Part shown: positions 19,563 to 63,942 of the stretch, one piece after another | How positions within the stretch are numbered: the stretch's first letter is position 1 | Layout: each line of letters begins with the position of its first letter | DNA from: Bacillales bacterium | GTDB lineage: Bacteria; Bacillota; Bacilli; Paenibacillales; CANHCR01 | Length of the DNA: 64,000 nt | Assembly (NCBI GenBank): GCA_947459205.1 | Contig: CANHCR010000009.1 | Location: 798 to 64,797 of the forward strand | Direction of reading: 5' to 3' | Translations under genes and position numbers: made by a program | The notes under the pieces: generated by a model | The model's database searches: none | What the model was told of the DNA's origin: nothing | Seen by the model: the letters and a program-made list of their open reading frames with translations, nothing else

Positions 19563-19667
19563 AGTGCAGTATCTCCATGATAATTAATTTTAATTGTTTT
19601 ATTCGAGATTTTTTCGCAAATATCGAGTATAATACATTTGTAAACGATATTTGTCGAGGTGAACATC

Positions 19668-21525: not shown

Positions 21526-21623
21526 CGAAAAAAATGAACTGTATCGACAATAATCGGTATACTTTAAATATAAATGTGAGATTGAAGAATTGGGGGCTGT
21601 CAAACGTGTTTGAAAAACTGAAC

Positions 21624-26400: not shown

Positions 26401-26576
26401 AATACGTGTACTTTATCGCCGAGACAAAAGGGTCGATGTCTAGCTTGGATGTGCGTGAAGCGGAAGAGGCCAAAATCGAGTGTGCACGCAAGCATTTTGC
26501 GCGGCTGAGCGGAGACGGGATTCAGTATGATGTGGTCAGCAATTACGAAGAGTTGTTGGGGAAAGTGATGAAGTAG
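23487..26576 (+). pseudogene. res: type III restriction enzyme Res, interrupted by a single in-frame TAA (25941-25943)
   Basis: Helicase motifs ETGTGKTY and IIDEPQS are in 23487..25943. The PD..ExK nuclease region (NPDWAIAF..YFIAETKG) is in 25956..26576. Both track ORFs are in the same frame (coordinate mod 3 = 0) and are separated only by TAA: ..GARVEH*RRYDLIGKLVEETQLTRKTI. Confidence 0.8.
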
Positions 26577-34528: not shown

Positions 34529-34637
34529 TTACATAATTGAGGATTTTAAATGAAATTATTGAATTATAACGATGCTGGTAAATTCTGTACGCATCAGGAA
34601 AATACTTTATCTTTCAATTCAAGGTGGTCTGATATCT

Positions 34638-38197: not shown

Positions 38198-38616
38198 TGT
38201 CTGATTTTTTGGATTCGATGTTTCATCAAAGCACGAGTAATGTATTCGGTGGCGAAAATATGTATAGTCAGAATGGAAGTCTAATAGGAAGTACGCAACC
38301 GAATGTATTTGGCGGTGAAAATTTATACGATGCCAATCATCAAATGATAGGGCACACAACGGATAATGTGTTTGGTGGTGAAAACATGTTCGACAACAGT
38401 CATCAGTTGGTTGGAAGCACCCAACCAGGTGTGATGGGGACAAATGTTTTTGACGGTCATCACCAGCAGATAGGACACGTTCAGTATGATGCTACAGGTG
38501 GAAGTTTCCATGATTTGCACGGACAACAAATGAGTTGGCAAAACAACATGTTTGGTGGCGTCACCATGGACCCGCTACAAAATACTGCAAGTTTGAGTTT
38601 TCCAAATTTGATTTAA
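38197..38616 (+). CDS. small protein built from 21-aa NVFGGEN-type repeats
   Basis: 139 aa. Repeats: NVFGGENMYSQNGSLIGSTQP / NVFGGENLYDANHQMIGHTTD / NVFGGENMFDNSHQLVGSTQP / GVMGTNVFDGHHQQIGHVQYD, plus degenerate copies. TAATG overlap with dynamin 2. Confidence 0.75.
   Translation: MSDFLDSMFHQSTSNVFGGENMYSQNGSLIGSTQPNVFGGENLYDANHQMIGHTTDNVFGGENMFDNSHQLVGSTQPGVMGTNVFDGHHQQIGHVQYDATGGSFHDLHGQQMSWQNNMFGGVTMDPLQNTASLSFPNLI
38239..38490 (+). repeat. 63-nt in-frame tandem repeat (4 clear copies) within 38197..38616
   Basis: Copies at 38239-38301, 38302-38364, 38365-38427 and 38428-38490, read from the DNA and translation. Confidence 0.8.
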
Positions 38617-38632
38617 AACAGGTGGTGAAGAG

Positions 38633-41600: not shown

Positions 41601-42184
41601 AGTTTTTAACGGCTCTATCCAAGAATATCGGTGATTATTTTGTCGAACTATACAAAGGATACGACATTAAAATTCAAGTGAATAAAACTGAGATTGATAA
41701 TTTGTTAGAAAAAATACAACGTGTCACATCAACCGAGGTTAGTGCTATTGGAAACATTGATGATGGTGTAAAAGATCAACTTTCCGGAGCGGCAATCGGT
41801 GCAGCAATTGGATTGATTTTGGGACCGCTTGGTGCGCTCGTCGGAGGATTCTTAGGAGGTTTGTTTTTTTCGAAATCAATTGAAGAAATTCAATATGAAG
41901 TGAACCAGGCCTTTTATAACGTGGCTAACGATACGCATATGAAATCTAATCAAATGGTAGAGAATGAAATAAGTCTTCAGAACGATCAAACCATTATGGC
42001 GAAAATCGATGAGGTTTGTGAATCGATTATGACGAAATACATTCAAGCAGTAGATCGTGTGCGTGGTTCATACCGTAACGAGATTAATGAATCTTTGGAA
42101 CGAATTATTCAAACTAAACATCATATCACCGATATTGCTAATAAGAATGTTCTCCTTGAAACTTGGCGCTCGTCGCGAAGGTAG
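38633..42184 (+). CDS. large dynamin-like GTPase 3 with about 560-aa N-terminal extension
   Basis: Central G1 GETSAGKTS, G3 IDTPGFNA, G4 LNKMD. C-proximal paddle LSGAAIGAAIGLILGPLGALVGGFLGGLFF. RBS AGGTGG. Confidence 0.85.
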   Translation: MSNIGKQLVEKVLKGNPLQNETFHFLKDSQIFCQVNNFQEEHSGYFFISNQRLGYVLNDGECFYYFPYSTVYRYESQYTDETEQYVYISILTIHDNQWKWTRFHVLVDDKVFSSIQFVLDYKYFYPAETSKGDIKKIASLINESRFQDAIDVLNELGQNDPLCGIYHALRFQVNSIQGKSEFAQFNLIQMFDTLSILDPEPLIYAIDSLEWDSRIIQWMNQYQENTLEFRIKEYMMAKSRKNPVEIFHAMNQMFAQLEGEYSDFGDILSLKSSLLINYFVGWSHLLDENMVKRTHQLIVDTEKKYIQSNDFAHLSDAEANMVVRRGATLNSYPQSGLFECVRTMYSTINGYPQISEMFNHHQFVSLANHSFDLVSLYDVDQSDTCSFLYNELPAKEKSRLINNIYCLFALLRTEGITEKTKQVFNSMRTKEGIDINIVLSKPQLILETSIYFFSCIEYFILTSQKKLANEYILHYRFKYGEALGSNIHHILKFGKDILDVYEAWANSDIPLLMSAKNFEVFLEIDWLPSLYIKYIQPMIEKHLKRLNENPQQSMHVVRNSILEITSGFQSLAQSNELLQAKKTKINEYVNQIKNRLHSDELRIAVIGETSAGKTSLLNRMFATDLFYVTQEEATGVPTEIRNGIEADAQVLDRHGNVVIRLNDTQKFELNQMIKRTVSNSNDTSLNSQLHAFIKQHTKVDEERSVNVDRVVVTLPIHDLPKNVVIIDTPGFNANQKRSDIALNVINQAHVCIFIIDARNALKSKEMNILRTVREQTGKLFLVLNKMDLIMGDDELDCDDGDSIKQTLDRVNGDLVRFFDSDKFQVCPVTCMPADRVPAEIVEYVNNLSSLKTRVIEHATTNELELITDMAVKESVDLIEEVQTIMYQTNTQKINKTYESIDKLPMDPHIHASFLYEQINDWLFSLEQSYKSKMYAFNLAKIQDAIDTFAAWVSNQTSSDHLTTGAQAKAESILTIAVNEINRNRKQELNKFLTALSKNIGDYFVELYKGYDIKIQVNKTEIDNLLEKIQRVTSTEVSAIGNIDDGVKDQLSGAAIGAAIGLILGPLGALVGGFLGGLFFSKSIEEIQYEVNQAFYNVANDTHMKSNQMVENEISLQNDQTIMAKIDEVCESIMTKYIQAVDRVRGSYRNEINESLERIIQTKHHITDIANKNVLLETWRSSRR

Positions 42185-43943: not shown

Positions 43944-44187
43944 GAGAGAATCGATTACACATGCGTTCACAAACCTCGTCATGAATAAGTTGGCTGTGGA
44001 GAATCGTGACTAAGATGAATTGATATGGCGGATTCAGTCTGACCTATTGGGGAAAGACTTCCGTTTGGAGTGTTTTTCCTTTCAAGTAGCACTTTGTCAT
44101 ATTCGCAGGAAATTGAAGGAGATTCTAGAAAATTAGCGAATTAAATCATAAAGCAATTGAAAAATGATAATTTTAAGGAGCACAGAC

Positions 44188-46665
44188 ATGACTTCGACCG
44201 AAATTCATTACCAATGGATTGCTTTTTATATGGAATTGGCCAATAAACTTCTTCAATATAAGCAGAATCGAAGCGAACTTCTTCAACTTTTGGACAAGGC
44301 ATACCAGGAATCATTCGCAGAAACTGGTCTAAACAATCCGTTGAGGAAGAATCAAGAGGACTTGGAAGATGTGTGTCCATTCACATTTTTTGCGTGTTTC
44401 AATCGCGGCATCAAAGATGAAAATCGCACCGCACTATTGCGAGAACTGGGGAGATTGTTTCAAATATCGGCAGAAGCCCCTACATTATTTGACGGGATTC
44501 CCCTAGCTGACAACCGGAGCATGTGGTTTTTTGCCGGCAAAAGAAAGCGTAATCCCGATGACATTCAAAAATTGTGGGATATGTTTGAGGTCGCAATTCA
44601 CTATGCAGAGCAATCGAGGGATCAACATGTGGAAGAACGTTTTGTTGATTTGTTCGACCGTGTTTTAACGCAACATCAGGTGAAATGGAATTTGACAATG
44701 GGTCTATATTGGATTCGACCAAACTTCTATTTAAATTTGGAAGAAACGAACCGCAAATTCCTAACAGAATTGAGAGAATTTCAACAATCGGAAATTGGTG
44801 GTCAAACAAAATTTGCGGATATGCCGGACGGAACTACTTACTTGAAATTGTTAGCATGGTTCGAATTGTATTTTCAACAATCCGATGCGAATGAACAAGA
44901 TAAAGCCGGCAACTTTTTTGAATTGTCGCGAAATGCTTATGAAACTGCAAAATTAGCGAAATCTGATCGGATAAGATATATGGTTCCTGTTGTCACTGCA
45001 TTACGAGAGTTGGGCGGCTCAGCTAAACCTGATCAAGTCCGAAAGGAATTGATCCGTAATTTGCAACTAAGTAACGACGTGTTAAATGAGCTTCGCGGAG
45101 AGAATAAAGTATCTAAATTTGAACACGAAGTTGCGTTTGCCAGAGAGGCATTGGTATTTGCTGAAATGATCGAAAAAGGCAATCACGGAACTTGGAAATT
45201 GACTGAGAAAGGTCTTGCGCTTCAGTTTACAAATCGGATTGCAATTCAAATGTATGCAAAATATGAAAAAAATACAAAAACGAAAAAAGAACACGTTCCT
45301 AACACTGGCGCTCAACAGTATTGGATCATCGCTCCCGGTCAAAACGCCGAATATTGGGGGGACTTTCAGGACTCCGAAATTATCGGTATCGGATGGTTTG
45401 AAGTGGGGGATTTACAGCAATATGCCAATAAGAATGAAGTTACGGATGTGATGAAGAAACATTATGGCGAGGACAAAGATTATAGAAACGACTCGCTTGC
45501 AATTTGGGAATTCGTCAATCAGGTGAAACCGGGAGATATCATCTATGCCAAGAAAGGTACGCGATTGATAGTCGGTCGCGGTATCGTTCAGGACGATTAC
45601 GAGTTTGAAGTTAGCGATCGGGTGATTCCCCATAGACGAAAAATCGTGTGGACACACACAGGGGAATGGAATTATCCGTTTGATAAAGATATTCCGAGAA
45701 AGACTTTAACGAGAATAAAAAATCAAGCGTCGTGCGCTGCTTTGGAAAGTCTGTTTGGTGAAACTCAAGTGAAACCGCCTGCTACGGATGCCGCTTTTTC
45801 CGAGCAGGACTTTTTGACGCAAGTGTTTATGGGATCAAAAGATTTGACTCATTTGATAGGTATTTTAAAAAATAAGCGGAATTTGATCTTGCTGGGTCCG
45901 CCCGGAGTAGGGAAGACATATGTCGCTGAACTGTTGGCGTATGCGTATATGAATGTGATAGATAAAAAACGCATAACATTCGTTCAATTTCATCAAAGTT
46001 ACAGTTACGAGGATTTCATGTTGGGCTATCGTCCAAACCTTGACGGATTTGAAATGGGGTATGGCCCGTTTTATAAAGCGTGTAAAGAGGCCGAAAAAGA
46101 TCCCAGTCAATCGTACTTCTTCATCATGGATGAAATTAATCGTGGCAATATCAGCAAAATTTTCGGCGAGTTATTGATGCTGATTGAGGCTGACAAGCGC
46201 GGTAAGAAGATTCAATTGCTGTATGGAGATGAGTCATTTTATGTTCCTGATAATCTTTATTTGATCGGCATGATGAATACTGCAGACCGAAGTTTGGCAT
46301 TGATTGATTATGCTCTCCGTCGTCGATTTTCGTTTTTCGAATTGGAACCTGCATTTGAGAAATCGGGATTTAAAGAAATCTCGAAAACGGCGAACAATGT
46401 GAAATTTGATTTGCTTGTAGAAAAAGTGAAGCAATTAAATCGACATATTCGTGAAGACCAATCACTGGGAAGCGGTTTTTGCATCGGTCATAGTTATTTC
46501 TGTGTGACAGATTCTGTCGATGAAATGTGGCTGGAGCGAGTCATCAAATATGAGATTTTGCCATTGGTACAAGAGTATTGGTTCGATGACAAAAAGAGCT
46601 ATGACCATTGGCACAAGGAACTTATGCAGATCTTGGATGGACGGGAAAGCGAGCAATTGCAATGA
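44188..46665 (+). CDS. mcrB: McrB-family AAA+ GTPase with N-terminal winged-helix and EVE-like reader regions
   Basis: LLGPPGVGKTY, FVQFHQSYSYEDF, FFIMDEINRGNISKIFGEL and IGMMNTADRSLALIDYALRRRF are McrB signatures. Upstream QQYWIIAPGQNAEYW..PGDIIYAKKG is EVE/PUA-like. ATG 44188 follows TAAGGAG. Confidence 0.9.
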   Translation: MTSTEIHYQWIAFYMELANKLLQYKQNRSELLQLLDKAYQESFAETGLNNPLRKNQEDLEDVCPFTFFACFNRGIKDENRTALLRELGRLFQISAEAPTLFDGIPLADNRSMWFFAGKRKRNPDDIQKLWDMFEVAIHYAEQSRDQHVEERFVDLFDRVLTQHQVKWNLTMGLYWIRPNFYLNLEETNRKFLTELREFQQSEIGGQTKFADMPDGTTYLKLLAWFELYFQQSDANEQDKAGNFFELSRNAYETAKLAKSDRIRYMVPVVTALRELGGSAKPDQVRKELIRNLQLSNDVLNELRGENKVSKFEHEVAFAREALVFAEMIEKGNHGTWKLTEKGLALQFTNRIAIQMYAKYEKNTKTKKEHVPNTGAQQYWIIAPGQNAEYWGDFQDSEIIGIGWFEVGDLQQYANKNEVTDVMKKHYGEDKDYRNDSLAIWEFVNQVKPGDIIYAKKGTRLIVGRGIVQDDYEFEVSDRVIPHRRKIVWTHTGEWNYPFDKDIPRKTLTRIKNQASCAALESLFGETQVKPPATDAAFSEQDFLTQVFMGSKDLTHLIGILKNKRNLILLGPPGVGKTYVAELLAYAYMNVIDKKRITFVQFHQSYSYEDFMLGYRPNLDGFEMGYGPFYKACKEAEKDPSQSYFFIMDEINRGNISKIFGELLMLIEADKRGKKIQLLYGDESFYVPDNLYLIGMMNTADRSLALIDYALRRRFSFFELEPAFEKSGFKEISKTANNVKFDLLVEKVKQLNRHIREDQSLGSGFCIGHSYFCVTDSVDEMWLERVIKYEILPLVQEYWFDDKKSYDHWHKELMQILDGRESEQLQ

Positions 46666-47723
46666 GCAGCATCCGAATCCGCAACATCTATCACATGCTT
46701 TCTTATGCATACAAATCACTGCGACAGACCTCGTATCAGAATTTGGCAAACGAGCCATTTGAACATGTGGCTGACCTGTTCGCTGCGATTTTGGCGATGG
46801 GTATGGCTGATCAGGTTCGCCGTGGCATCACAAAAGATTATCGTGAGCACACCGAGTCTTTGCCGATGATACGGGGCAAAATAGAATGGGGTACGACTTT
46901 GAACAGCAGATCGGTGCTGACCAAGAAATTGGTTTGCCGATATGACGTTTATGACGAAAATATATACTTGAATCAGATTCTTTATACGACAGCACATGTA
47001 TTACTTCGCAATCAAGAGGTATGTGAAGAGCGGAAGCGAAAACTGAAAAAAACGATGATGTTTTTCGCAGGTTGTGACTTGCTCGATCATTCCTCAATTC
47101 AGTGGAATCGAATTCAGTACCATCGGAACAATGTCGTGTATAAGATGTTGATCAACGTCTGCTATCTGGTGCTGCACGGATTATTGTTGCGGCAAGAGAG
47201 CGGGGCGTATCGGCTCGCAAACTTTATAGATGACCAAAAACGATATCAACTCTTCCAACGGTTTGTTCTTTGCTACTATCAGCATCATTACCCGCACTAT
47301 CATCCTCGCGCCCAAGTGATTAAGTGGCAACTGGATGACTCGTTCATCGATTTTTTGCCCAATATGGTAAGTGATGTACTGATGGAGTATGGTGGACGAA
47401 CGGTGATATTGGATACCAAATATTATAGGAAAATTATGAGCAAACGGTATTACTCAAATCCGGGCGCCGAGAACGATGAAGACAAAGTCAAAGTGAACTC
47501 GGCAAACTTGTATCAGATGTTTTCTTATGTGAAGAACTATGCCGCACATTCAGTTAATCAAGTATCGGGCTTATTGTTATATGCCAATACGAATGAACAG
47601 ATTACGCCGGATGTAGAGTACAGGATGGGTGGCAATGTGATACGCATCAAAACTGTCGATTTAGATCAGGAATTTTCATTGATTGAAACACAGTTGCATG
47701 ATATTTTGAAAGAGTTGATTTGA
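46662..47723 (+). CDS. mcrC: McrC nuclease subunit
   Basis: ATG 46662 overlaps the mcrB TGA (ATGA). N-terminal IRNIYHMLSYAY and the PD-(D/E)xK-type VILDTKYY motif fit McrC. Confidence 0.8.
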   Translation: MSSIRIRNIYHMLSYAYKSLRQTSYQNLANEPFEHVADLFAAILAMGMADQVRRGITKDYREHTESLPMIRGKIEWGTTLNSRSVLTKKLVCRYDVYDENIYLNQILYTTAHVLLRNQEVCEERKRKLKKTMMFFAGCDLLDHSSIQWNRIQYHRNNVVYKMLINVCYLVLHGLLLRQESGAYRLANFIDDQKRYQLFQRFVLCYYQHHYPHYHPRAQVIKWQLDDSFIDFLPNMVSDVLMEYGGRTVILDTKYYRKIMSKRYYSNPGAENDEDKVKVNSANLYQMFSYVKNYAAHSVNQVSGLLLYANTNEQITPDVEYRMGGNVIRIKTVDLDQEFSLIETQLHDILKELI

Positions 47724-48213: not shown

Positions 48214-48353
48214 TTTGATTTAGACCACTTAGATTTGAGAAAAGACGAAAACGGTGAGCATGTATATCGTTAGTAACGTAATGGTTAGTTCACATGGCGT
48301 TTGTTTTTGATGAAAGCTACTTTGAATTTTTGTATTTACGGAGGTGTGTTATA

Positions 48354-49838
48354 GTGGGAATGCCGATGAATGCGCATCTGATGCTGAGTTTATTAGGTGA
48401 GACCGAATTGGAGCAGTCAGTAATTGCAAAAGTCCATGGAATGCTGAAATCATTCGATTTATTTGCATTTGTCTTGCATGACAAAATTGAGCATCGACAG
48501 TTTGATTTGAAGTTCGAAGAAATTTATCATGATTTGCATCGTGAGACTAATAAGCATGTATTATTCTTTTCGTTTGTAAATCCTAAAGTTGGATGGGACG
48601 ATTATTTAAAAAATACCGCTTATTTTTCTGAACTTTTATCAACAGATTTTTATAAATTTTTATCTGTTATGGAGACATATTTTTCGCATGACTCCGTTTG
48701 TTCAGTGAACCAAATCGCGCGAGCACTTCGCATTGATTCGGAACAGCTTCCTGTCATTATCCTAACACAAGATTTCAGTTTACAAAGTTTTAAGGTTATC
48801 GAAACGAACGAGAATATTTTTGTTTCTCAATTTAAAGCGATAGAGAAAGCAGTCAAGGATTTTGAAGTCGAGCGCCACCATTACTCGAATGAACAGGGGC
48901 AAGAGCGACTATTTAAGGACATTGATAAATATCTTGCATTGCTTAAATCAGATTCGCTCGACTACAACTCAGAAGTTGTTGGATTTTCCGTCGCAAATGC
49001 TCTTCAACCATTATTCCGCATCATTCGCATGATATGGGATTGTCCATTCGAACAACTTTCTCACGTTGACAAACAAAAAATTATTGAGATTTTTGAGTCG
49101 ATGCGCATTGATTTAGAGCGAATGAAGGTTTTGTTTCTAAAATCGGAAGAGGAGAATATTATCAACGAGTACGAACAAATGTGTAAACAGTTGTCGGATT
49201 GTTTGGCACTTGTAGATAAGCCTGTTCAGCAAATTGTGCCTGAAGAGTTCGCTGATGTGAGCCGATTTATGGAGCGTAACTCTCATGAATGGTTCATCAG
49301 CGGGTTACGCATTTCTAAATATTTAGAAACGGGAATCAACCGAAATACGAATAAGAATACGATTGATTATTCTCCGGCGGCCATTTGCATCGGAAAATCG
49401 TTTGAGAATGAAATAAATTTATCGATTTATCAATGGTTACGGAAAATTGCTGGTGTTAATTTGCCTGATTACTATGATAAGCCTCAACCGAATTTGGGAG
49501 TAGAAGAGACGCAGTTTCAGTTACCATACGGCAACACTTATCAAATTAATGTTAATAGGTCAAGCAAAAATAATCAGAAATTAATTTACCCAGGTCTAGG
49601 AACTATCTATCATTTCGTGAAAGATGATTATTGTCCTGATCAATTTACAGAAAACGATTGGCGCTCATTTCTTCAGGAGTGGGAAACAATTTTTCGTGTT
49701 CGAAATCAAGCAGCCCACACAAAAACTGTGAATAAGTCTGAATTTAACAAACTCGTTCGATCCTTTGAAAGAATTATTGTCCCGAGACTTTACTCCCAGA
49801 TTGTCGCTATGAAAAAAACGTTGCGCGGAGAAACATAA
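48354..49838 (+). CDS. hypothetical protein with C-terminal HEPN-type RNxxAH motif
   Basis: GTG 48354 lies 9 nt after GGAGG (track start 48294). The C-terminus WETIFRVRNQAAHTKTV matches the Rx4-6H (RN..AH) HEPN signature seen in Abi_2-like proteins. Confidence 0.6.
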   Translation: MGMPMNAHLMLSLLGETELEQSVIAKVHGMLKSFDLFAFVLHDKIEHRQFDLKFEEIYHDLHRETNKHVLFFSFVNPKVGWDDYLKNTAYFSELLSTDFYKFLSVMETYFSHDSVCSVNQIARALRIDSEQLPVIILTQDFSLQSFKVIETNENIFVSQFKAIEKAVKDFEVERHHYSNEQGQERLFKDIDKYLALLKSDSLDYNSEVVGFSVANALQPLFRIIRMIWDCPFEQLSHVDKQKIIEIFESMRIDLERMKVLFLKSEEENIINEYEQMCKQLSDCLALVDKPVQQIVPEEFADVSRFMERNSHEWFISGLRISKYLETGINRNTNKNTIDYSPAAICIGKSFENEINLSIYQWLRKIAGVNLPDYYDKPQPNLGVEETQFQLPYGNTYQINVNRSSKNNQKLIYPGLGTIYHFVKDDYCPDQFTENDWRSFLQEWETIFRVRNQAAHTKTVNKSEFNKLVRSFERIIVPRLYSQIVAMKKTLRGET

Positions 49839-51388: not shown

Positions 51389-51579
51389 GGAGAAACGGTT
51401 GTTTCTGATTATATACAGCGTGTCAAAATTACAATTGATGATATTATCCATTTTCGCAGTAGCTGATTCATAGTAAAAAATGGCATTATCATGAGTATAA
51501 CCATGTGGAAAGATTTTTGAAAATCTGCCGCATGGTTTTTCTTTTTTTGGCAGGAAAACCATCAAATATGTAGAATTTA
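51389..51579 (+). promoter_or_regulatory. leader-like module, copy 2, directly upstream of the 51619 operon
   Basis: Homologous to 32596-32785. Contains mini-ORF 51491..51520 (MSITMWKDF) overlapping the 5' arm of a terminator. It ends about 40 nt before the RBS GGAGGG of the 51619 gene. Confidence 0.7.
51499..51548 (+). terminator. intrinsic terminator/attenuator inside leader module copy 2
   Basis: Stem aaccatgtgg (51499-51508) / ccgcatggtt (51528-51537, one G-U), inner stem agatttt/aaaatct, then tttttcttttttt. The stem is conserved with copy 1 while the loops differ. Confidence 0.7.
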
Positions 51580-51618
51580 TAAAATAGAATTCTAAATAAT
51601 CGGAGGGTTTGATTTCAT

Positions 51619-52653
51619 ATGTTAAATAAACTACTAGAAAACAAAGAATTAATCAATTATTTAGAAAGTGCAGCATGTCGATTGAAAGTAATCGAATTCG
51701 ACGAAAGTTTTAAGTCAATTTCAGAGGCGGAATTAAATCATTTATTGCAGTTTTTACACCGTTTTTGTCACGAAAGACAGTGGGTGTATGCGATTCGAGA
51801 TGCATCAAAGACGCCGGAGAATGCGATTTCACACTATGTCGATCGTTTAATCGAGCAGTCGAAATCTAGGGATGCAGAAGACAAAATTTTTAAACGATTG
51901 GTTGTTATTACGAATATACCTGACGAGCCTTCAGAAGCACTTGTATCGGCTTTAGATCGTCTATTGGAATCTAGTGATGATATGTATTTGATCGTTTCTT
52001 TCGGCAGATCGATCTATAAGCAAGTCTATAAGATGAGTAAATTCAGGATGTTCCTAGATAAATTGCTTTTGATTTCGAATGCAACAAAAAATACGGAAAT
52101 CAGGAGTGTTGCGTCATCAAACATATTGATAACAAATGTACCGACAACAAACGTGGCATTTCCGCGATATCGTCCGTCAGATGATTTGAAAGCATTTCTG
52201 TACGCAAATTTCCCGCTGATTCATAATGCGAATTTTGACTTGTCTGAAATCAATCATGAGTCAACGATAGTGAAAGCAAAATTAACGGATCACCTTAATC
52301 ATCATCACACAGCGTTCGGTGGCAGCATTGCTCTTAGTTTGTTATTGTCGGCGATGTGCCATTTGGTCAAGATTGTCGATACGTTCCCTGAAGAGTTGTC
52401 ATTTGTTATCGGCAAACAGGAAGTCACATATTACGAAAAAATAAACGAAGACTTTGTTGTTAGAAGTCTTGAGGTTTCCGACCAGGAAAAACGCGATTAT
52501 TTTGCACGCGTAATGGAGCGCGGAAGAGGTGCCATTGTGATTAAATCGCAAATTCGCGACGAAGCCACTGATAAACTGCTGGCAGAGTTTATTGGGAAGT
52601 TCGTATGTATCAAGTGTATGGATGTTGAACCTTCCGACTATGCAATAAGCTAA
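51619..52653 (+). CDS. hypothetical protein, C-terminal hotdog-fold (PaaI/4HBT thioesterase-like) region
   Basis: 344 aa, RBS GGAGGG. C-terminal KAKLTDHLNHHHTAFGGSIALSLLLSAMCH..GAIVIKSQIRDEATDKLLAEFIGKFVCI resembles the N..G.(H/F)GG..a.L.D hotdog pattern. The N-terminal half is unknown. Confidence 0.65.
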   Translation: MLNKLLENKELINYLESAACRLKVIEFDESFKSISEAELNHLLQFLHRFCHERQWVYAIRDASKTPENAISHYVDRLIEQSKSRDAEDKIFKRLVVITNIPDEPSEALVSALDRLLESSDDMYLIVSFGRSIYKQVYKMSKFRMFLDKLLLISNATKNTEIRSVASSNILITNVPTTNVAFPRYRPSDDLKAFLYANFPLIHNANFDLSEINHESTIVKAKLTDHLNHHHTAFGGSIALSLLLSAMCHLVKIVDTFPEELSFVIGKQEVTYYEKINEDFVVRSLEVSDQEKRDYFARVMERGRGAIVIKSQIRDEATDKLLAEFIGKFVCIKCMDVEPSDYAIS

Positions 52654-55701: not shown

Positions 55702-58137
55702 ATGATGATTCGCATCGATCTAGAGCGAGCTCGCACGGCACGCACGATTGTCGCGCGTTTGCAGCTAGCCATGAAAGAGCACTGGCAAGTCGCCTTTCCT
55801 TTATATGAAGATGCGGAACGGGCACGCCTGCTTTGTTTGCAAAACGGCGGCGGAAACCGTAATTTCACTCACCCGCGTTTGCTCCAGATGTGGCGAGATC
55901 TTCAAAAGGAATCGCAAATGAACGTCACGATTACGTTTTTCGACCTCAATCGGCATTATGCAAAGTTGGTGGAGGCCGCGTTTCGTGCTGATCTAGCAGA
56001 TTTTTTTGCCACGTGTACAGCAGATGAGCGAACTGCGCTTCCTGTTCTGAATGTGTTCAATTACATTTGTCCTAAACATTGGCAGTTGCAAATCGATGGC
56101 GTCCAGTGGGGCTCCGTTTATGCTCGGACCGAGGTGCCTGAGCTGCCGGTGGATGCTTTATTTGCGTGCAATCGTGAAGCGACGATGGAACCGGTGTGGG
56201 CAGATCAGGCGATTGCATGGTTGGAGTATCGTCTGCATCACTGCAACCAGTTGTCTGAAGTTTCGAAAGTCATCAAGTCTACGTTTAGCAAAATCAAGAA
56301 GCGCCTCTATTTGACGTATCAATTGACGGAACTTTATGAGGCGTATCGCGTCATCCTTGACGCTTTGCCAAAGCTTGCACGCGCCGAACGATTGCTGAAG
56401 ATGTATCGCCTCGAATTCGCACAGCTACTCGCCATCCATTTTGAGGAAGAGTGTGCGCAACCGTTAGCAAATTTCAATCAATCCATCGAGACGAATATTT
56501 TAGACATTCAAGTTCTGACTGCGCTACATGAAGAAATTGCGTTTGATGGCTTTGCTTGGCTTGGACGTTGGCGACAAGAAACGCGCACTTCTTCTGTCAT
56601 CCACCAACGAAAATGCAAGTGGTTCGATCAATGCAACGAATTGTTTCAAGCACATGATGGTCAATACAAGCCTTGGATGCGCGAAATCTTCTGTAAATTA
56701 GCGATTGAGTTCCATGCGCGTATGCAACATCGACAAATGGAGCAACTTTTCGAATGGAACAAATCGGTGCGCTATTGGAACGTAATGGACCGCTTAATTG
56801 TGTTTTATGACTGGCATGAACTCGTGACGAGAGATACAAGTTATCTATTCGATGTGGCGGAACGAATGACTTTCATCGGTCGTTTCGAACGTGTCGTGCG
56901 CAACTATTTCCGCCATTTGCGAGAGGATGATATAAGTGAGCAAGATATGGTAGAGCGGTTCCAAAATCAATATATCGTGCCGCGACAGTTCATGCGTTAT
57001 GATACTTGGATTCGCGAAGTCGATAAGCTAATTGGCAACGAGCGTTGGATGAGTCGCTTTTCCGAAGCAACGCAATTGGATTTGCGTTTTGCGGTGCTGA
57101 AGTCACACACTCTATTGTCGTTTTTTCAAACACCACTCGACGAACGTTTTGCAGAATTACAGCAACAAATTGAGCAACGTTACGGAAGAATGGATCGACG
57201 TTGGATTGAATTGATGACAGATATTTATCCGAAGATCGCTGATCGGCTGAAAAGAGCCGATCAATACGGTCTCTTAATATTGAATTCGATTGAAGAGGAT
57301 AATCACGACAATTTGGGTGATCGACTACAAGTTATCGCAACGTTGTTGGAGCGAAAAACTATTTTGCTGAATCAGTCAACAATCCTCAGTTTGGCTCACG
57401 AATATGTAGAAATTGTGGCATTAACGAAAAAGAAAGATTTGACTGGATTATGCAAATTAATCTGGTCGCGCGGCGCCCGAACATTGTACTTTTATTTAAT
57501 GCAACGGCAACTCGAAACATATGCAGCAATGGATAACAAAAATGTTTTGGATGCTATGCGTTTTTATGGAAACTGCATCTTATTAAATGAGGATATTTTC
57601 AGAACCGCAACTCTTTTTACAAAAGCTTCAGATTATTCTTTTGCTTGTTTCCGCATGGTAGAGCAAATTGTAATCCAAAAAGCTACATTTGATATGAGTC
57701 ACTTATCTTTTTTAGCAAAGTTGTTGGTGATGTGTTCACAGTCGAACGATTCACGGACTCCGTCCATTATGCAAAACTTATATGAGTATGTGTTGAACGG
57801 CATCGAAGAGGTACAAAAACAAGATAAATCTTTATCAGAGAAATGGAGAAATCGTTTTTTTAAAATACTCCGCAATAAAGATTGGCACATTTGGGTGGAA
57901 AAACATGGGGGTGAGCAAATGTGGTGGGATTGGTTGGAGTTTTCTTGGTCAGAAACGAAAAATTGGTATTTGAAGACCTTGAAAGATGTGATGATCGTCT
58001 CACGGTTGAACACGCTCAAAAAATTCGAAACACGTTTTTCCTTGGACGCAGGTCGACTTGCCGCTGTCGCCGAGATGCGAGCAAGATGTTATGATCTGCT
58101 CGGTCCGCATCATCCGAAGGTGAAAGGTGGGATGTGA
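55702..58137 (+). CDS. large hypothetical alpha-helical protein (811 aa)
   Basis: RBS AAAGGAG. Trp/Arg-rich and helical. Its size and position upstream of MoxR/vWA recall the large uncharacterised partners (YehM/DUF4132-like) of other MoxR-vWA loci, but no homology could be verified. Confidence 0.7.
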   Translation: MMIRIDLERARTARTIVARLQLAMKEHWQVAFPLYEDAERARLLCLQNGGGNRNFTHPRLLQMWRDLQKESQMNVTITFFDLNRHYAKLVEAAFRADLADFFATCTADERTALPVLNVFNYICPKHWQLQIDGVQWGSVYARTEVPELPVDALFACNREATMEPVWADQAIAWLEYRLHHCNQLSEVSKVIKSTFSKIKKRLYLTYQLTELYEAYRVILDALPKLARAERLLKMYRLEFAQLLAIHFEEECAQPLANFNQSIETNILDIQVLTALHEEIAFDGFAWLGRWRQETRTSSVIHQRKCKWFDQCNELFQAHDGQYKPWMREIFCKLAIEFHARMQHRQMEQLFEWNKSVRYWNVMDRLIVFYDWHELVTRDTSYLFDVAERMTFIGRFERVVRNYFRHLREDDISEQDMVERFQNQYIVPRQFMRYDTWIREVDKLIGNERWMSRFSEATQLDLRFAVLKSHTLLSFFQTPLDERFAELQQQIEQRYGRMDRRWIELMTDIYPKIADRLKRADQYGLLILNSIEEDNHDNLGDRLQVIATLLERKTILLNQSTILSLAHEYVEIVALTKKKDLTGLCKLIWSRGARTLYFYLMQRQLETYAAMDNKNVLDAMRFYGNCILLNEDIFRTATLFTKASDYSFACFRMVEQIVIQKATFDMSHLSFLAKLLVMCSQSNDSRTPSIMQNLYEYVLNGIEEVQKQDKSLSEKWRNRFFKILRNKDWHIWVEKHGGEQMWWDWLEFSWSETKNWYLKTLKDVMIVSRLNTLKKFETRFSLDAGRLAAVAEMRARCYDLLGPHHPKVKGGM

Positions 58138-58744
58138 TTTGAATCGTCAAACGAAAAAGAAATATCGCCTGCGCAATTGGGATGACGTACAAGAGTTTGA
58201 AAAATATGCGCGACTCATCACCGAACTGATGATTTCCTGTTTGCCTCGCGAACAGGTGGAACGTTTGATGCTGGCGCGTCTAAATGAGCGAGATTTTTCG
58301 ACATTGCAATGTTGGTTCAATCACGATAAAGATTTTACGGCGACCGTCGCGGCGTTGCAAACGCAAGATTTCTCGCGCTTTGTGGAACTTACTTTGTTTA
58401 ACGTATTCAGTGAACTAGAGCGGGCACTTGTCGAGTATTTAGATTCGCTCGATTTCACGCCGGAAGTAGAGGTTCAGAACGCGGAAATTGTGGTGCGCAA
58501 TCCGCTTCCGTTTTTGCAATATACGACGTGGCCGATGGAAGATTACTCGTATCTAGTCGTAAAGACAAGCATCGACAAACAGAAGTTTTGGGCAGAGAAA
58601 TGGAGCCGTTCGGAGCAAAAGATTTTACAAAAGGTATATGCGTACAAGAAAAACCGCAGCGGGCGCTATGTGATTGCAAAAGACGAGTTCGCCAAGGCGT
58701 TGATTGAAATGAACGAGTTGTTAGGCAACCCGACTGATCGTTAA
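58127..58744 (+). CDS. hypothetical protein
   Basis: 205 aa. GTG 58127 or TTG 58139 start, overlapping or abutting the stop of the 811-aa gene (translational coupling). Confidence 0.6.
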   Translation: MGCDLNRQTKKKYRLRNWDDVQEFEKYARLITELMISCLPREQVERLMLARLNERDFSTLQCWFNHDKDFTATVAALQTQDFSRFVELTLFNVFSELERALVEYLDSLDFTPEVEVQNAEIVVRNPLPFLQYTTWPMEDYSYLVVKTSIDKQKFWAEKWSRSEQKILQKVYAYKKNRSGRYVIAKDEFAKALIEMNELLGNPTDR

Positions 58745-58756
58745 GGAGGTACCACC

Positions 58757-59827
58757 ATGCATCATGTGACACCAGGAAAATTGTTGGAAATTTTGCTACC
58801 GCTGTATACGAACGCTGCGAAAATGAGTGAAGTGCCGAGCATCATGCTGTGGGGCGAGCCAGGCATCGGCAAGTCGCAGACGATTCGTAAACTGAAAGAT
58901 GAGTTGCATCGTTTGACGGGCAAGGAGGGATTGTTGCGCGACGTGCGCCTCTTGCTCTACAATCCTGTCGATTTGAAAGGCATTCCCGTGCCTGACGAGG
59001 AGCGAGTGCGCTCGAAGTGGTTGCGACCGACGCTGTTTGATTTCGCGGAGGGTGATGAGTTTCTGCATGTGCTCATGCTCGATGAAATATCGGCAGCTCC
59101 GCCATCCGTGCAGGCAGCAGCATATCAGCTGATTTTGGATCGGCAAATCGGCGATCACAAACTGCCAGACAATGTCGTCGTTATCGCAGCGGGCAACCGC
59201 ATCGGTGATGGCGGTGTTGCGTTTCGTATGCCGACGCCCCTTCGCAATCGCATGACCCATTTTAAAATTGAGCAGGATTTAGACGATTGGCTTTCCTACG
59301 CCGAACGCGATCAGCTGCACGAAGCGGTGCGTGGCTTTATTCGTTTCGCAGGTATTAAGATGCTGCTTGATTTCCGCGCCGACAGCGACGAGGAAGCGTT
59401 TCCGACACCGCGCAGCTGGGAGTTCGTCTCGCGCTATTTGAAGTTGTACGGCGATTCACAACTCGCTGAACCTGCGATTGTTGGAACGGTAGGCAAAGGA
59501 GCAGCAGCTTCCTTTATTGAGTATACGAAAGTGTTCGAGGAATTGCCGGATCTCGAGGCGATTATGGCGGGTCAGCAGGTCGAATTGAAATCGACACGCT
59601 TTGACGTGATTTGTGCGCTGTCCATTCGTATCGCTGGCGTGATTCCGACGATGACGAGTGAGCAAGCCCATCATCTCGTCGATTTTTTACTTAAGTCGGC
59701 GATAAAAATCGAACATATTTTCATGTTGATCAGTGATTTGTGGCGCATATCGAGAACACACGAGATGATACGCGGCATGAGCAGTTTGGTGCAATGGCAA
59801 ATGTCACACAAACGATTTTTTAAGTAG
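58757..59827 (+). CDS. MoxR-like AAA+ ATPase (AAA_5)
   Basis: Walker A GEPGIGKSQ, Walker B LMLDEISAA, sensor VIAAGNR and PTPLRNRM. RBS AAGGAGG. Confidence 0.9.
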   Translation: MHHVTPGKLLEILLPLYTNAAKMSEVPSIMLWGEPGIGKSQTIRKLKDELHRLTGKEGLLRDVRLLLYNPVDLKGIPVPDEERVRSKWLRPTLFDFAEGDEFLHVLMLDEISAAPPSVQAAAYQLILDRQIGDHKLPDNVVVIAAGNRIGDGGVAFRMPTPLRNRMTHFKIEQDLDDWLSYAERDQLHEAVRGFIRFAGIKMLLDFRADSDEEAFPTPRSWEFVSRYLKLYGDSQLAEPAIVGTVGKGAAASFIEYTKVFEELPDLEAIMAGQQVELKSTRFDVICALSIRIAGVIPTMTSEQAHHLVDFLLKSAIKIEHIFMLISDLWRISRTHEMIRGMSSLVQWQMSHKRFFK

Positions 59828-59830
59828 GCG

Positions 59831-61081
59831 ATGCGGATGAACGAAGAACAAGAAGCATTAAAGAAATTGGAAAACTCATTGACCGTACTGATTGTCAAGT
59901 TTCCGTTCTTAGGCAGGTTGGCATTGCACTTGCAATTGCGTGCGCGGCCCGATGTGAAGACCGCGGCGACAGATGGGATTCATTATTTCTATGCGCCGCA
60001 GTTTTTTGCCCGACTGAAGCAAACCGAGGTTAATTTTGTCACGATCCATGAAGTGATGCATGTCGTATTCAAACATATTGAACGTTGCCGTGATCGGGAT
60101 TTGGATTTTGTCACGTACAATTTTGCCTCGGATTATGTGATTAATGCCGCCATCCGTGAACTCGATCCGACGCAAGAGATTTTTAAAATGCCGAAACAAG
60201 GCTTGTACAAAAAGAAATATGAGGGTCTGTATACGGAAGAAGTGTACGCGCTTTTGCAGAACAGCGACTCGGGGCAAGAGTTGATTGATCGTTACAAAAA
60301 GCAAAAAGAAGCGCAAGAACGGGGTGTAGGAGAGGGTACGCATCCGATTAAGGGACACGATGTGTGGCGCGAATTGTACGATCGCTTGTCTCCTTCGGAT
60401 ATTGAGCAGTATGAAAGGGAATGGCAGCGTAGAATCGATAGCGAAATCCGACATTTTCCGGAGCGATTTGCGGGTAGCAGTGCGGGGTCGATGTTTCGCC
60501 GGTTTGTGCTTGAGCGTGCGGTGCCGAAAAAAAACTGGCGCCGGTTGCTGCACGAGTTCTTGGCATTTGAAAGCAACGATTTCGGCTTCAATCCGCCGAA
60601 TCCCAATATGATGCACTTATCGCAATTTGGCTACGATGTGATCATGCCGGATTGGAGCGAGCAAGAGCCTGTTTTGCGCAACATCGTGTTCGCCGTCGAT
60701 ACGTCGGGGTCGGTTGATGGCGCACAGTTTCAACTTGTACACAATGAGATCATTGCCTGCCTGCAAATGTTTGGCGGGCGCGTGGATGGCAAGTTGATTT
60801 ACTGTGACGCTCATATTCCTGATGATGGTGTGTACGACATTGTGAACGTGAAAAACGCGCTGCCGGTCGGCGGTGGTGGCACGAGTTTCATCCCCGTATT
60901 CGAGTGGATCGCAGCTAATTGGCAAAATCAGTGTGCGGGCCTCGTGTATTTGACCGATGGGTATGGTGAATTTCCCGATTTTGCTCCGCCGTATCCCGTA
61001 CTTTGGGTGCTGTTGCGAAAGAAGCATGAATGTGAGGTCGAAGTGCCGTTCGGCAGTCGAACCGAGTTAATTATGGATTGA
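59831..61081 (+). CDS. vWA domain protein with N-terminal HExxH metallopeptidase-like domain (DUF2201-type)
   Basis: IHEVMHVVFKH (HExxH) in the N-terminal half. MIDAS VFAVDTSGSVDG and a YLTDGYG-type strand in the C-terminal half. Starts 3 nt after the MoxR stop. Confidence 0.85.
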   Translation: MRMNEEQEALKKLENSLTVLIVKFPFLGRLALHLQLRARPDVKTAATDGIHYFYAPQFFARLKQTEVNFVTIHEVMHVVFKHIERCRDRDLDFVTYNFASDYVINAAIRELDPTQEIFKMPKQGLYKKKYEGLYTEEVYALLQNSDSGQELIDRYKKQKEAQERGVGEGTHPIKGHDVWRELYDRLSPSDIEQYEREWQRRIDSEIRHFPERFAGSSAGSMFRRFVLERAVPKKNWRRLLHEFLAFESNDFGFNPPNPNMMHLSQFGYDVIMPDWSEQEPVLRNIVFAVDTSGSVDGAQFQLVHNEIIACLQMFGGRVDGKLIYCDAHIPDDGVYDIVNVKNALPVGGGGTSFIPVFEWIAANWQNQCAGLVYLTDGYGEFPDFAPPYPVLWVLLRKKHECEVEVPFGSRTELIMD

Positions 61082-61293: not shown

Positions 61294-61490
61294 TGTCAAT
61301 CACCCGTTTTCCATTGCGAATCCGAATCGATATTTTCGTTGATGAACCGAATTCAGTTGCTCTTGGGTTATACGTTTTCAGTAAATGGGGATTAAGTTTT
61401 AATTTCGCTTGCTATCTGCGACACTTCAAGGCGATGAGATGTTTTACAATTTGCTGATACGTTAATATGAGATTTCGTCAAACTTGACGA
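61294..61490 (+). repeat. about 195-bp direct repeat, copy B (near-identical to 32805-33000)
   Basis: See copy A. Carries an open 54-codon frame (MSITRFPLRIRID..GLSFNFACY..) that is frameshifted in copy A. It ends at the start region of the 61484 gene. Confidence 0.9.
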
Positions 61491-63133
61491 TGGGGGTGGA
61501 GGTAATAAAAAACATTTCTATGCAAGACTTCAGCGTTGATGATGTTCCGAATCTAATTCGCTCCGCTGTCGATGAGATTAATTCTACACATAACAGTTTT
61601 GGGCCATACAACCGAGAATCTCTTGTCAAAGTGAAAGGTTGGCTTGAAACCGCATGGCAACTGATGGTTGACAAGGAGTTCTGTGAGACTCATCTGCAAA
61701 TCGCTTGGCCGTTAACGGTTGTATATATTAGGCTGAATTTGCCTCATAGCATTGATGAACTCATACAATACTTGAAAAAACATGATCGTGAAGGTTTGTC
61801 CGAATCTCTGTTAAGCTTGATGAAAACCTCGCAAGCTCTATCAAATTACACTTCAATCTATAAAACATATCATAACGGCTCAGTGGTGTATGAGTTGTCA
61901 AATCCAAAAGCTGTGGCACAACTTATTGCATTGTGTAGTGAACATCGGTATTGGGTGTTAGATATGAGAATTAAGGAACAACCTGTTTTACATGGTCACT
62001 CAATCGTCAAAGGTTTAACTGAGGCAGATGGAGCGATTTTGCTTGAATTAATGACGAATCGACGAGGAGCATCTTCGCAACTCATCATAGAGAGGTTGAA
62101 CGAAGTGCTTGATTCGGTTGTTGAAGCGGAACAGTTTGATCTCCGGATGTCACGACTACGCACACAATTAAGAGATCAATTTTCCGAACTAATCCCTCGA
62201 GATACCTTGTTTATCAATGAGTCTGAACGATATGAATGGAACGTGCCTGGTACGTTCTATGTAGTTGAAACAATTGATTATAAATCTATCAGTACCTCGG
62301 ACTTTTTGAATATCGGGCTAACACCGTATCATGTTTGCGACTTGTCAGATATGACGGAAATGAGTGATTTTGAAGCGTTTGAAAAATTTTGTTTGGCGGT
62401 CGCAGTGGAATACGGTTTATTTGTTGAAAAAGAACCTTACTCGCTTGATCAAGTATTACAACATCTAACGGAGTCGGCAGATGATAAAAAAATTCTTTCA
62501 CTATCTGGGGAGTTAATTAAAGGATTAGTAGTCTGTCAAATCCATCTGAAACATTCTGGTGAGATTGATAAAGTATGGGGTGAAATTGAAGCGATTTTGA
62601 AAAAAAACAAATTGTACAATTTCTATGAAAGGTATAATTATCTTTATCGTGCGTTAGATGAAAGTAGGTCACCGCATCTTTTGTATATAAATGGTGAGCA
62701 ATTTCGTGATGTGACCCTAGATCGTGTATATCGCACAATTGAGGATGCTCATGATCGTGAGGATATGTTAGTCTTGGACTATCGTGTTGCCATTCGACCC
62801 CGAATCCATGCTGCGGGAATAACTTGGGAAGTAACGCCGCTTCAAGGGAAATTATTGTTCGCGCTTATGACAACAACTCGCCCTGTGACAAAGGAGCAAA
62901 TTATCGCTTACGTAGGTGAATCCTTTTCATTCGATCGAATGCTCCAAAATTTAAGACAAAGATTTGAAGACAAGTATCCTAACCATTACAACACTAAGTT
63001 TCTTCGCAGTCCAGATAAAAAAGGATATCGCATTGGACTGGATTGTGAATTTGCTGTCATTGATAGAAAAACATACGAACCTTACACTGGGATCATTAAA
63101 CCATCACCTATAATTCAATTCACTAACATCTAG
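61484..63133 (+). CDS. putative transcriptional regulator with two OmpR/PhoB-type winged-helix (Trans_reg_C-like) domains and no receiver domain
   Basis: Two matching segments: LTEADGAILLELMTNRRGASSQLIIERL..FDLRMSRLRTQLRDQF and VTPLQGKLLFALMTTTRPVTKEQIIAYV..DRMLQNLRQRFEDKY. Start ambiguous (TTG 61484, ATG 61490 or ATG 61520). Confidence 0.65.
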   Translation: MTMGVEVIKNISMQDFSVDDVPNLIRSAVDEINSTHNSFGPYNRESLVKVKGWLETAWQLMVDKEFCETHLQIAWPLTVVYIRLNLPHSIDELIQYLKKHDREGLSESLLSLMKTSQALSNYTSIYKTYHNGSVVYELSNPKAVAQLIALCSEHRYWVLDMRIKEQPVLHGHSIVKGLTEADGAILLELMTNRRGASSQLIIERLNEVLDSVVEAEQFDLRMSRLRTQLRDQFSELIPRDTLFINESERYEWNVPGTFYVVETIDYKSISTSDFLNIGLTPYHVCDLSDMTEMSDFEAFEKFCLAVAVEYGLFVEKEPYSLDQVLQHLTESADDKKILSLSGELIKGLVVCQIHLKHSGEIDKVWGEIEAILKKNKLYNFYERYNYLYRALDESRSPHLLYINGEQFRDVTLDRVYRTIEDAHDREDMLVLDYRVAIRPRIHAAGITWEVTPLQGKLLFALMTTTRPVTKEQIIAYVGESFSFDRMLQNLRQRFEDKYPNHYNTKFLRSPDKKGYRIGLDCEFAVIDRKTYEPYTGIIKPSPIIQFTNI

Positions 63134-63198
63134 TGAAAGCCTGCTCACTTAGGATAAAGATAAGTAATAAACACACTTATTATAAGGGAGCGATTAAG

Positions 63199-63942
63199 AT
63201 GTCGAAAAACAACGATCAGATTAGAGAATTGCTAGCTTTTTATCAAAACAATGGTGACCGTCATGCACTGGAACAAATCATGATGGAACATATGAAACTG
63301 GTTTGTTTTATCGTGAACCAATTTTTGTCCGACAAAGAGACATATGCGAGAACATGGTTTGATGATTTATGCTCGGAAGGAAATCTTGGTTTGATGCATG
63401 CCGCAAATGAATATGATTTGTCTCGTAACACTAAATTCTCTCATTATGCTTATATGAAAATTTTTCGCAATGTGAGTCGAGCGTATCATGAGTGTATAAA
63501 ACAAATGAAAGTCCCGTATTCACATGTGACTCGTCTGAAGCGATACATTGAAGCGGATAGCATGTTTAAGAACGCACTTAATTTGGAAGTATCACATCGT
63601 GAGTTTATAAAATCAGAGATGGGGATTTCGGAATGCCAATACTGGAATCTCAAGCATGCCGCAGCTGCTAGTGACGTTGATTTTTTAGATGACGATTCCT
63701 TTGAAACATCAGCCATAACTCCAACAATTCGTTTAGAAGACGAGGTGATTTATGGAGAGTTTGAAACTTTTTTAAACCATATCTTGTCTCAATTAGATGT
63801 GGAAGTGGGGCAACTGGTCGTACAAAGAATGAACATCGATTTTTCGCGTAAATCGCAACAAAAAGTATTAAGTAGAAAGGAAAAACAAGTCCTTCAACCG
63901 GTGCAGTCACTTATCGGCGAGTGGTTTAACGAATCAAATTAA
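63199..63942 (+). CDS. sigma-70 family RNA polymerase sigma factor (divergent; region 4 not obvious)
   Basis: Region 2 DLCSEGNLGLMHAANEYDLSRNTKFSHYAYMKIFRNVSRA, then MKVPYSHVTRLKRY, then a region-3-like HTH. ATG 63199 follows AAGGGAG (track start 63133). Confidence 0.8.
   Translation: MSKNNDQIRELLAFYQNNGDRHALEQIMMEHMKLVCFIVNQFLSDKETYARTWFDDLCSEGNLGLMHAANEYDLSRNTKFSHYAYMKIFRNVSRAYHECIKQMKVPYSHVTRLKRYIEADSMFKNALNLEVSHREFIKSEMGISECQYWNLKHAAAASDVDFLDDDSFETSAITPTIRLEDEVIYGEFETFLNHILSQLDVEVGQLVVQRMNIDFSRKSQQKVLSRKEKQVLQPVQSLIGEWFNESN

Follow-up and report, generated by a model that had tools for sequence, protein, structure and literature searches.

What does a MoxR-type AAA+ ATPase act on when the gene beside it encodes a von Willebrand factor A (vWA) protein with a peptidase-like domain of its own? 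The question is raised by two genes near the 3´ end of a 64,000-nt stretch of DNA from a Bacillales bacterium (GenBank assembly GCA_947459205.1, contig CANHCR010000009.1, positions 798 to 64,797 of the forward strand; hereafter the window, whose own numbering is used throughout). From profile matches, conserved sites and predicted structure, the pair (58757-61081) is almost certainly a MoxR(AAA+)/DUF2201 module in which a zincin-like peptidase domain lies N-terminal to the vWA domain, and it forms the 3´ end of a tightly packed four-gene operon. The two open reading frames (ORFs) and the junction between them are as follows.

58757-59827, + strand: ORF A, MoxR-type AAA+ ATPase, 356 aa
59825-59839, + strand: junction of ORF A and ORF B, read from the sequence (TAG at 59825-59827, gcg, ATG at 59831, second in-frame ATG at 59837)
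59831-61081, + strand: ORF B, vWA-metallopeptidase protein, 416 aa (alternative start at 59837, giving 414 aa)

Both genes of the pair are real and intact. ORF A is preceded by a strong Shine-Dalgarno sequence, AAGGAGG (58743-58749), 7 nt 5´ of its ATG, and ORF B lacks a canonical one, the nearest candidate being AAGTAGG at 59822-59828. Public gene calls differ in the start of ORF B, two of them using the ATG at 59837 (414 aa) and the JGI call the 416-aa start, so that the gap between the genes is 3 or 9 nt. The original prediction had the genes 3 nt apart and translationally coupled. The spacing was as described, with the ORF A stop ending at 59827 and the ORF B ATG at 59831 (9 nt with the start at 59837), and, given the tight junction and the lack of a canonical Shine-Dalgarno sequence for ORF B, the gene arrangement makes translation of ORF B by termination-reinitiation after ORF A plausible. 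Among cellular loci encoding a MoxR/vWA pair, the spacing was at most 21 nt or the genes overlapped in 28 of the 49 that could be scored.

For ORF A, the identity as a MoxR AAA+ ATPase was borne out. The protein is a divergent member that nevertheless passes the Pfam threshold for the MoxR family, AAA_3 (E 1.1e-7; 32.3 bits, cut-off 27), and, narrowly, that for AAA_5 (22.8 bits, cut-off 22). A PHROGs profile search assigned it to phrog_1297 ‘ATPase’ (E 2.7e-84). No PDB sequence match was found at E <= 0.01. The protein is 45% identical to gp566 of Bacillus phage G, and the five AAA+ motifs listed below are all present and intact; aligned with 21 phage and cellular homologues, each shows 95% conservation or better.

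ORF A, aa 33-40: Walker A, GEPGIGKS
ORF A, aa 106-110: Walker B, LMLDE
ORF A, N147: sensor-1
ORF A, R165: Arg finger (LRNRM)
ORF A, R219: sensor-2 (TPRSW)

ORF B matched two Pfam families well above threshold: PF13203, DUF2201_N ‘putative metallopeptidase domain’ (E 5.7e-29, 102 bits, cut-off 23.2, aa 12-257), and PF09967, DUF2201 ‘VWA-like domain’ (E 6e-16, 59.1 bits, cut-off 26.4, aa 285-412). It also matched phrog_1314 (E 1.7e-70). Judged by these scores, the motif and profile matches of both proteins are far beyond chance. The domains and sites of the protein are listed here, with residues numbered in the 416-aa form; in the 414-aa form the HExxH site reads H71/E72/H75/H80. MIDAS denotes the metal ion-dependent adhesion site of the vWA domain.

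ORF B, ~aa 1-165: zincin-like N-domain
ORF B, ~aa 165-280: variable, low-confidence linker
ORF B, ~aa 280-416: C-terminal vWA domain
60044-60076, + strand: IHEVMHVVFKH, aa 72-82, with HExxH residues H73, E74 and H77 and the candidate third zinc ligand H82
60698-60712, + strand: MIDAS DxSxS (DTSGS), aa 290-294
60881-60883, + strand: MIDAS Thr T351, in GGGGT
60956-60958, + strand: MIDAS Asp D376, in LTDG

Across 28 homologues that are 27-88% identical to ORF B, the residues E74, H77, H82, R85 and D101 were invariant and H73 was retained in 27, the exception being a homologue (P0103) that lacks the first His of HExxH. The MIDAS residues D290, S292, S294, T351 and D376 were likewise invariant, and the family profile aligned the DTSGS segment to the MIDAS of the integrin alpha-X/alpha-M I-domain (integrin I-domains, E 4e-4). 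A vWA protein combining its own HExxH domain with a complete MIDAS, as had been proposed, is thus what the locus encodes. The label ‘HNH endonuclease’, which phage homologues carry in RefSeq and PHROG, was rejected as an annotation error, as neither the Pfam nor the structure search gave any HNH or nuclease signal.

Does the HExxH region have the fold of a metallopeptidase? The AlphaFold model of full-length ORF B (pLDDT 80) has both domains confident and a poorly defined linker of ~110 residues, and a PDB fold search with it returned vWA/integrin I-domains only. The N-domain was therefore modelled alone (residues 1-162; pLDDT 94.7, pTM 0.89). In order, this model consists of two N-terminal helices, a three-stranded sheet (strands 33-52) and a helix, 62-77, that carries HExxH. 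Its PDB matches were few and weak, the sole ones with a probability above 0.5 being the minigluzincins selecase and projannalysin (probability 0.85-1.0, E 0.025-0.7, TM ~0.5 on the target, 10-19% identity), with further, weaker matches to SPRTN and to the metalloprotease domain of ArdC. By sequence, the family profile touches selecase and an M48 peptidase at E ~0.01. The minigluzincins and the M48/M56 peptidases share with the model the three-stranded sheet followed by the HExxH helix; unlike them, the N-domain of ORF B has a long extra pair of N-terminal helices and is fused to a vWA domain. With all of the credible matches being zinc peptidases, the predicted structure is supportive rather than strong evidence for a metallopeptidase fold, in agreement with the original prediction.

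A domain of this predicted fold need not cut anything. The HExxH could bind a metal or a peptide while the couple assembles a complex or inserts a cofactor, in the manner of NorQ-NorD, CoxD-CoxE and CobS-CobT. The MoxR-vWA couples that have been studied well all act as chaperones, either for assembly or for the insertion of a cofactor (listed in PMC7159879), many of the vWA-fused peptidase domains in conflict systems have been reported to be catalytically dead (PMC7159879), and both the homologue lacking the first His of HExxH and a viral relative labelled ‘cobalamin biosynthesis protein’ fit such a role. However, among homologues of 27-88% identity the catalytic Glu and the three His hardly ever vary, which speaks for a chemistry that has been retained. 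Moreover, there was no Pfam match to the CobT, CobS, NorD or CoxE models and no match to the CobT/CobS or chelatase (BchI/BchD) family profiles in Pfam and NCBIfam, and metalloenzyme genes were not found nearby. We therefore regard a non-proteolytic chaperone or metal-handling pair as quite unlikely.

The pair is far from confined to this bacterium. Relatives of ORF B were found by tblastn in 570 phage records, the best being gp576 of Bacillus phage G (39%). Most of the others come from N4-like Schitoviridae, in which the vWA gene is N4 gp25 and the ATPase gene gp24; both belong to the 14 core genes of N4-like phages and are middle genes of unassigned function (PMC4193335, PMC2784036). A structure search of BFVD added cyanophage S-TIM5, Bacillus phage PBS1, roseophages and others, with ATV ORF892 among the structural matches. 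In the Thermus phage phiFa the pair adjoins RNase H and recombination genes. The vWA-peptidase gene was also present on 76 plasmids, many of them conjugative Burkholderia replicons on which it lies beside type IV secretion system genes. In 72 of 80 loci from cellular genomes (Proteobacteria, Bacillota, Verrucomicrobia and archaea), a same-strand gene just upstream encodes a MoxR homologue, and in many Proteobacteria the pair is a stable chromosomal module with conserved synteny. A scan of the genome collection yielded no close relative (best, 32% identity). The architecture is therefore not new, being already catalogued (Pfam, PHROGs 1297/1314) and published for jumbo phages.

The gene neighbourhood sets this pair apart from most of its relatives. 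It is preceded by two genes for orphan proteins, which complete the operon.

55702-58137, + strand: 811-aa soluble orphan, first gene of the four-gene core and candidate client or partner
58127-58744, + strand: 205-aa orphan, second gene of the core, with its start at 58127 or 58139, overlapping or abutting the 811-aa gene

The gaps between successive genes of the 811-aa protein, the 205-aa protein, the ATPase and the vWA protein are -11, 12 and 3 nt, followed by 402 nt to the next gene. Neither orphan matched Pfam, PHROG, PADLOC or PDB entries. The 811-aa protein had a single homologue among 5.8 billion proteins, a 595-aa protein encoded at the same position in GCA_041443065.1, and the 205-aa family had 10 cluster representatives among 1.84 billion proteins. 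This smaller family has four paralogues in the island that surrounds the operon (58127-58744; L003:14953-15528, 17912-18445 and 18466-19038), those other than the 205-aa protein being 191, 177 and 190 aa long; no catalytic-looking motif was seen in the family and few residues are invariant (L77, P112, F129 and T147). It was absent from the phage records and from the sampled jumbo-phage contigs.

The order 811-aa class, ~200 aa, MoxR, vWA-peptidase recurs four times in a few Bacillota contigs. A second, paralogous module lies ~28 kb downstream on the same scaffold (L003:10001-16330), with a 354-aa MoxR protein (44% identical) and a 400-aa vWA-peptidase (46% identical) encoded by convergent genes and preceded by genes for 908-aa, 191-aa and 272-aa proteins and a sigma-70-like gene; two further ~200-aa paralogues are encoded near it. 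GCA_041443065.1 has both modules, only ~7 kb apart, with the 595-aa orthologue replacing the 811-aa protein, and on a third contig the order is LRAT-841-200-MoxR-vWA-M28 peptidase. The position of the 811-aa protein is taken by proteins of 841, 859 and 908 aa in the three other modules. Genes for sigma factors and for Macro, PLD, LRAT and M28 proteins accompany the modules as accessory genes.

Two observations on the proteins of these modules can be added. The 272-aa protein of the downstream module has a faint RNA_pol_Rpb1_1 match and matches phrog_25354 (E 5e-10). A C-terminal LLGP(H/N)HP is shared by the 811-aa ORF (58090-58137) and the 908-aa protein, and could be a docking or cleavage site, or chance. 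Homology of the two large proteins was considered and rejected: BLAST was negative, and hhalign aligned the short C-terminal motif only, at 10% probability.

In a neighbour-joining tree, the proteins of the Bacillota modules formed one clade, sister to phage G and to phage-G-like jumbo-phage contigs and well apart, together with that sister clade, from the N4-like, plasmid and proteobacterial versions. The Bacillota proteins are 39-45% identical to those of phage G and the jumbo-phage-like contigs (41-44% in the jumbo contigs). The phage-G-like contigs carry many small same-strand orphans together with NusG, SASP and glucosaminidase genes. One of them (L090:7793-19721) has two copies of the MoxR/vWA-peptidase pair at a distance of ~8 kb, so that the bacterial island is not alone in having the pair duplicated.

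These relationships bear on two phage-centred explanations. In the first, the pair serves an ‘establishment’ function of a mobile element or phage and acts on host proteins, for instance as a protease-chaperone in takeover or counter-defence, the region being or deriving from an element related to phage G. This is what the sister relationship to phage G and the jumbo-phage-like contigs, the closest relatives outside the Bacillota modules, might lead one to expect, and it would fit the place of the pair, as core middle genes, among the replication genes of N4-like phages, its proximity to RNase H and recombination genes in phiFa and to secretion genes on Burkholderia plasmids, and the inclusion of ArdC and SPRTN among the distant fold matches. 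The G+C content is in keeping with it as well, being 0.49-0.51 for the MoxR and vWA genes vs 0.37-0.46 for the orphan neighbours. Yet no integrase, tRNA, structural, replication or conjugation gene was found in the window or in 40 kb downstream, there was no DNA match to phage records, and phage homologues are lacking for the neighbours of 811, 205 and 549 aa. The stable chromosomal module of many Proteobacteria likewise speaks against an establishment function, which we consider unlikely. That the locus is itself a fragment of a prophage or jumbo phage was rejected, since there was no phage DNA match, no tRNA and, over ~100 kb, no structural or replication gene, and the neighbours lack phage homologues.

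In the second, the pair would belong to a prophage and act as a chaperone-protease in virion assembly, as has been proposed for the homologues of group 2.2 jumbo phages (Iyer et al., 2021, PMC7824862). The precedent of ATV in tail development, together with the presence of ATV ORF892 among the structural matches, would accord with this. In the window and flanking loci (~100 kb), however, there were no capsid, portal, terminase or tail genes, and the surrounding orphans of 200-900 aa are unlike phage morphogenesis modules. Because no virion genes were found over this distance, we judge such a role to be very improbable here.

If neither phage explanation is favoured, what is the setting of the four-gene module? 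The window is a co-directional defence island, its dense part spanning 13361-49838 and orphans following from ~50 kb onward. The features of the island are these.

Before HKD+Snf2: SbcC-like and Mrr genes
14535-17822: HKD+Snf2
18633-19562: DEDDh-BRCT / PDC-S48
19659-21525: AbiLi/AbiLii
21534-23474: Mod of a type III restriction-modification system, intact
23487-25943 and 25956-26576: Res of the same system, split in two ORFs (REase_III positions 1-756 and 779-987)
26592-27722: EVE-HNH
27873-32399: PDC-S37-like helicase with MTES_1575 nuclease
34572-42184: three consecutive dynamin-family GTPases of 635, 573 and 1183 aa, matching LeoA/LeoBC of Eleos, the last two separated by a 139-aa ORF
44164-47723: McrBC, comprising an Mrr_N-AAA_5 McrB-like protein and McrC
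48294-49838: 514-aa ORF with weak Cas12f/TnpB-like matches

A frameshift, a stop or phase variation could account for the split Res gene. G+C falls from ~0.55 at 1-8 kb, where MatE and SbcCD-like genes lie, to 0.34 at 50-52 kb, and the GC skew is positive throughout the window. Scans for terminators and promoters gave no more than expected from shuffled sequence; the one promoter-like site worth noting is TTGGCA-18-TAGAAT (51547-51576), the best of the region, which follows a 619-nt gap. The gene 3´ of it (region 51547-52653) encodes a 344-aa protein with a C-terminal YiiD_C hotdog thioesterase domain and may open the long series of same-strand genes that the pair closes. On the other side of the pair, the gene for a 549-aa orphan (61484-63942 region) has a stop that overlaps the start of a sigma-70-like gene, in which we recognized region 2 only and a weak MzaA-like match. 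Just past the window end are M28 peptidase and PLDc_2 genes (L007:13362-16730), and a second sigma factor gene precedes the downstream module. The pair was also considered as a known defence system and rejected as such: it has no PADLOC-DB v2 match, the match of the ATPase to DolB (E 0.0012) being negligible and the vWA protein and the orphans having none.

The island setting, together with the accessory genes for sigma factors, Macro, PLD, LRAT and M28 proteins, suggests that the four-gene module is probably a conflict cassette, of the phage-defence type, at the edge of the defence island. The conserved linkage of the four-gene core makes the orphan proteins the best candidates for clients or partners of the pair, an assignment of the 811-aa and 205-aa proteins that is possible but, to our minds, somewhat doubtful. 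As to how the pair would act, characterised MoxR-vWA systems (RavA-ViaA, CbbQ-CbbO, Midasin and ATV p618/ORF892; PMC7159879) provide the models. By analogy, the ORF A ATPase would assemble as a hexameric ring, the MIDAS of the ORF B vWA domain would hold a client protein by one of its acidic residues, and ATP hydrolysis would remodel the client so held; the attached zinc-peptidase domain might then cut the client, or might itself be switched on. We regard this chaperone-plus-protease mechanism as evenly balanced between right and wrong. The proposal made at the outset, of an ATP-driven proteolytic switch acting on one of the upstream proteins, is plausible on the same analogy and fits the conserved neighbourhood; it has indirect support in the four independent instances in which the 811-aa-class and ~200-aa proteins accompany the pair.

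Taken as a whole, the reading in which a MoxR/DUF2201 chaperone-protease pair, with the orphans as its clients or partners, probably forms a conflict cassette at the defence-island edge has in our view about an even chance of being correct, and several findings count against it. The N-domain has weak counterparts only in the PDB (best E 0.025), and which residue serves as third zinc ligand is a guess. The pair occurs without these orphans in phages, on plasmids and on proteobacterial chromosomes; as it works elsewhere without them, its client need not be encoded by a neighbouring gene. Apart from the short C-terminal motif, no homology could be detected between the 811-aa and 908-aa proteins, and a shared position is therefore no proof that the proteins are the same. 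Close coupling of the two genes is not conserved, given that those of the paralogous pair on the same scaffold are convergent and those of phage G lie 4.4 kb apart. Among the neighbours, Pfam searches detected none of the known third components, VMAP and iSTAND included, and neither the pair nor its neighbours match a PADLOC defence model. Finally, literature searches for DUF2201, COG3864, PF13203, N4 gp24/gp25 and MoxR in anti-phage functions found no functional study, and no experiment on any family member was found in the searchable literature or is known to us.

A bolder version of the conflict-cassette reading can be put forward, although we think it unlikely to hold. The four-gene unit, with an orphan of 600-900 aa and one of ~200 aa ahead of MoxR and the vWA-peptidase, would be an undescribed anti-phage system of spore-forming Bacillota, present twice in this island along with the sigma factor, Macro, PLD, LRAT and M28 genes. 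Phage-G-like jumbo phages would share its chaperone-protease couple and might be the source from which it was captured; the ATPase-vWA switch would sense infection, and the peptidase would release or activate an orphan effector.

On its own, the finding reveals no new architecture or mechanism, and the pair is an ordinary member of a known family. MoxR/DUF2201 pairs are, however, among the most widespread gene pairs of phages and mobile elements without an assigned function, being core to all N4-like phages and occurring in many jumbo phages. What is new here is a rare bacterial module of four genes, beside a defence island, duplicated, and sister to the jumbo-phage versions. Such a module, clonable as a unit, is a compact genetic handle for finding the substrate that the couple binds or cleaves, and an answer obtained with it might carry over to the phage proteins.

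How, then, does the pair compare with systems already described? The jumbo phages of group 2.2 encode MoxR and a vWA protein with an N-terminal metallopeptidase domain (Iyer, Anantharaman, Krishnan, Burroughs, Aravind 2021, PMC7824862), and the architecture and partnership of that pair are identical to those in the window. The role proposed for it is virion assembly with proteolytic processing, whereas the pair studied here has no virion genes nearby. N4 gp24/gp25 (PHROGs 1297/1314) and gp566/gp576 of phage G belong to the same families, with the same domain order in the vWA protein and the ATPase gene upstream. A small ORF separates the two genes in N4-like phages and 4.4 kb separate them in phage G; unlike either, the genes described here are directly adjacent, form an operon with two orphans and lie in a bacterial contig without phage genes.

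RavA-ViaA, CbbQ-CbbO, NorQ-NorD, CoxD-CoxE, BchI-BchD, CobS-CobT and Midasin resemble the pair in that a MoxR/helix-2-insert AAA+ protein is co-encoded with a vWA partner that has a MIDAS, but these characterised couples, unlike ours, carry no peptidase domain, and Pfam gave no match to the families specific to them. Peptidases do occur in the ternary MoxR-vWA conflict systems (VMAP, iSTAND, FtsH and beta-propeller types), for which a threshold-switch function with peptidases as effectors has been described (Kaur et al. 2020, PMC7159879). In the eight neighbours of the pair, Pfam searches (E <= 0.01; no profile-profile search for VMAP or iSTAND was made) detected no VMAP, iSTAND, FtsH-type double AAA+ or beta-propeller domain. 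The domain order also differs, the vWA domain of those systems being N-terminal and the variable effector C-terminal, while in ORF B the peptidase domain is N-terminal and the vWA domain C-terminal. The proteins of the window furthermore belong to the DUF2201/N4-type clade, in a Bacillota host rather than in the multicellular lineages stressed for the conflict systems (PMC7159879). What the two have in common is a MoxR and vWA core, a peptidase fused to the vWA domain, additional linked proteins and a setting like that of a defence island, and the logic proposed for those systems, an ATP-dependent threshold switch that releases an effector, is the same as the one proposed here.

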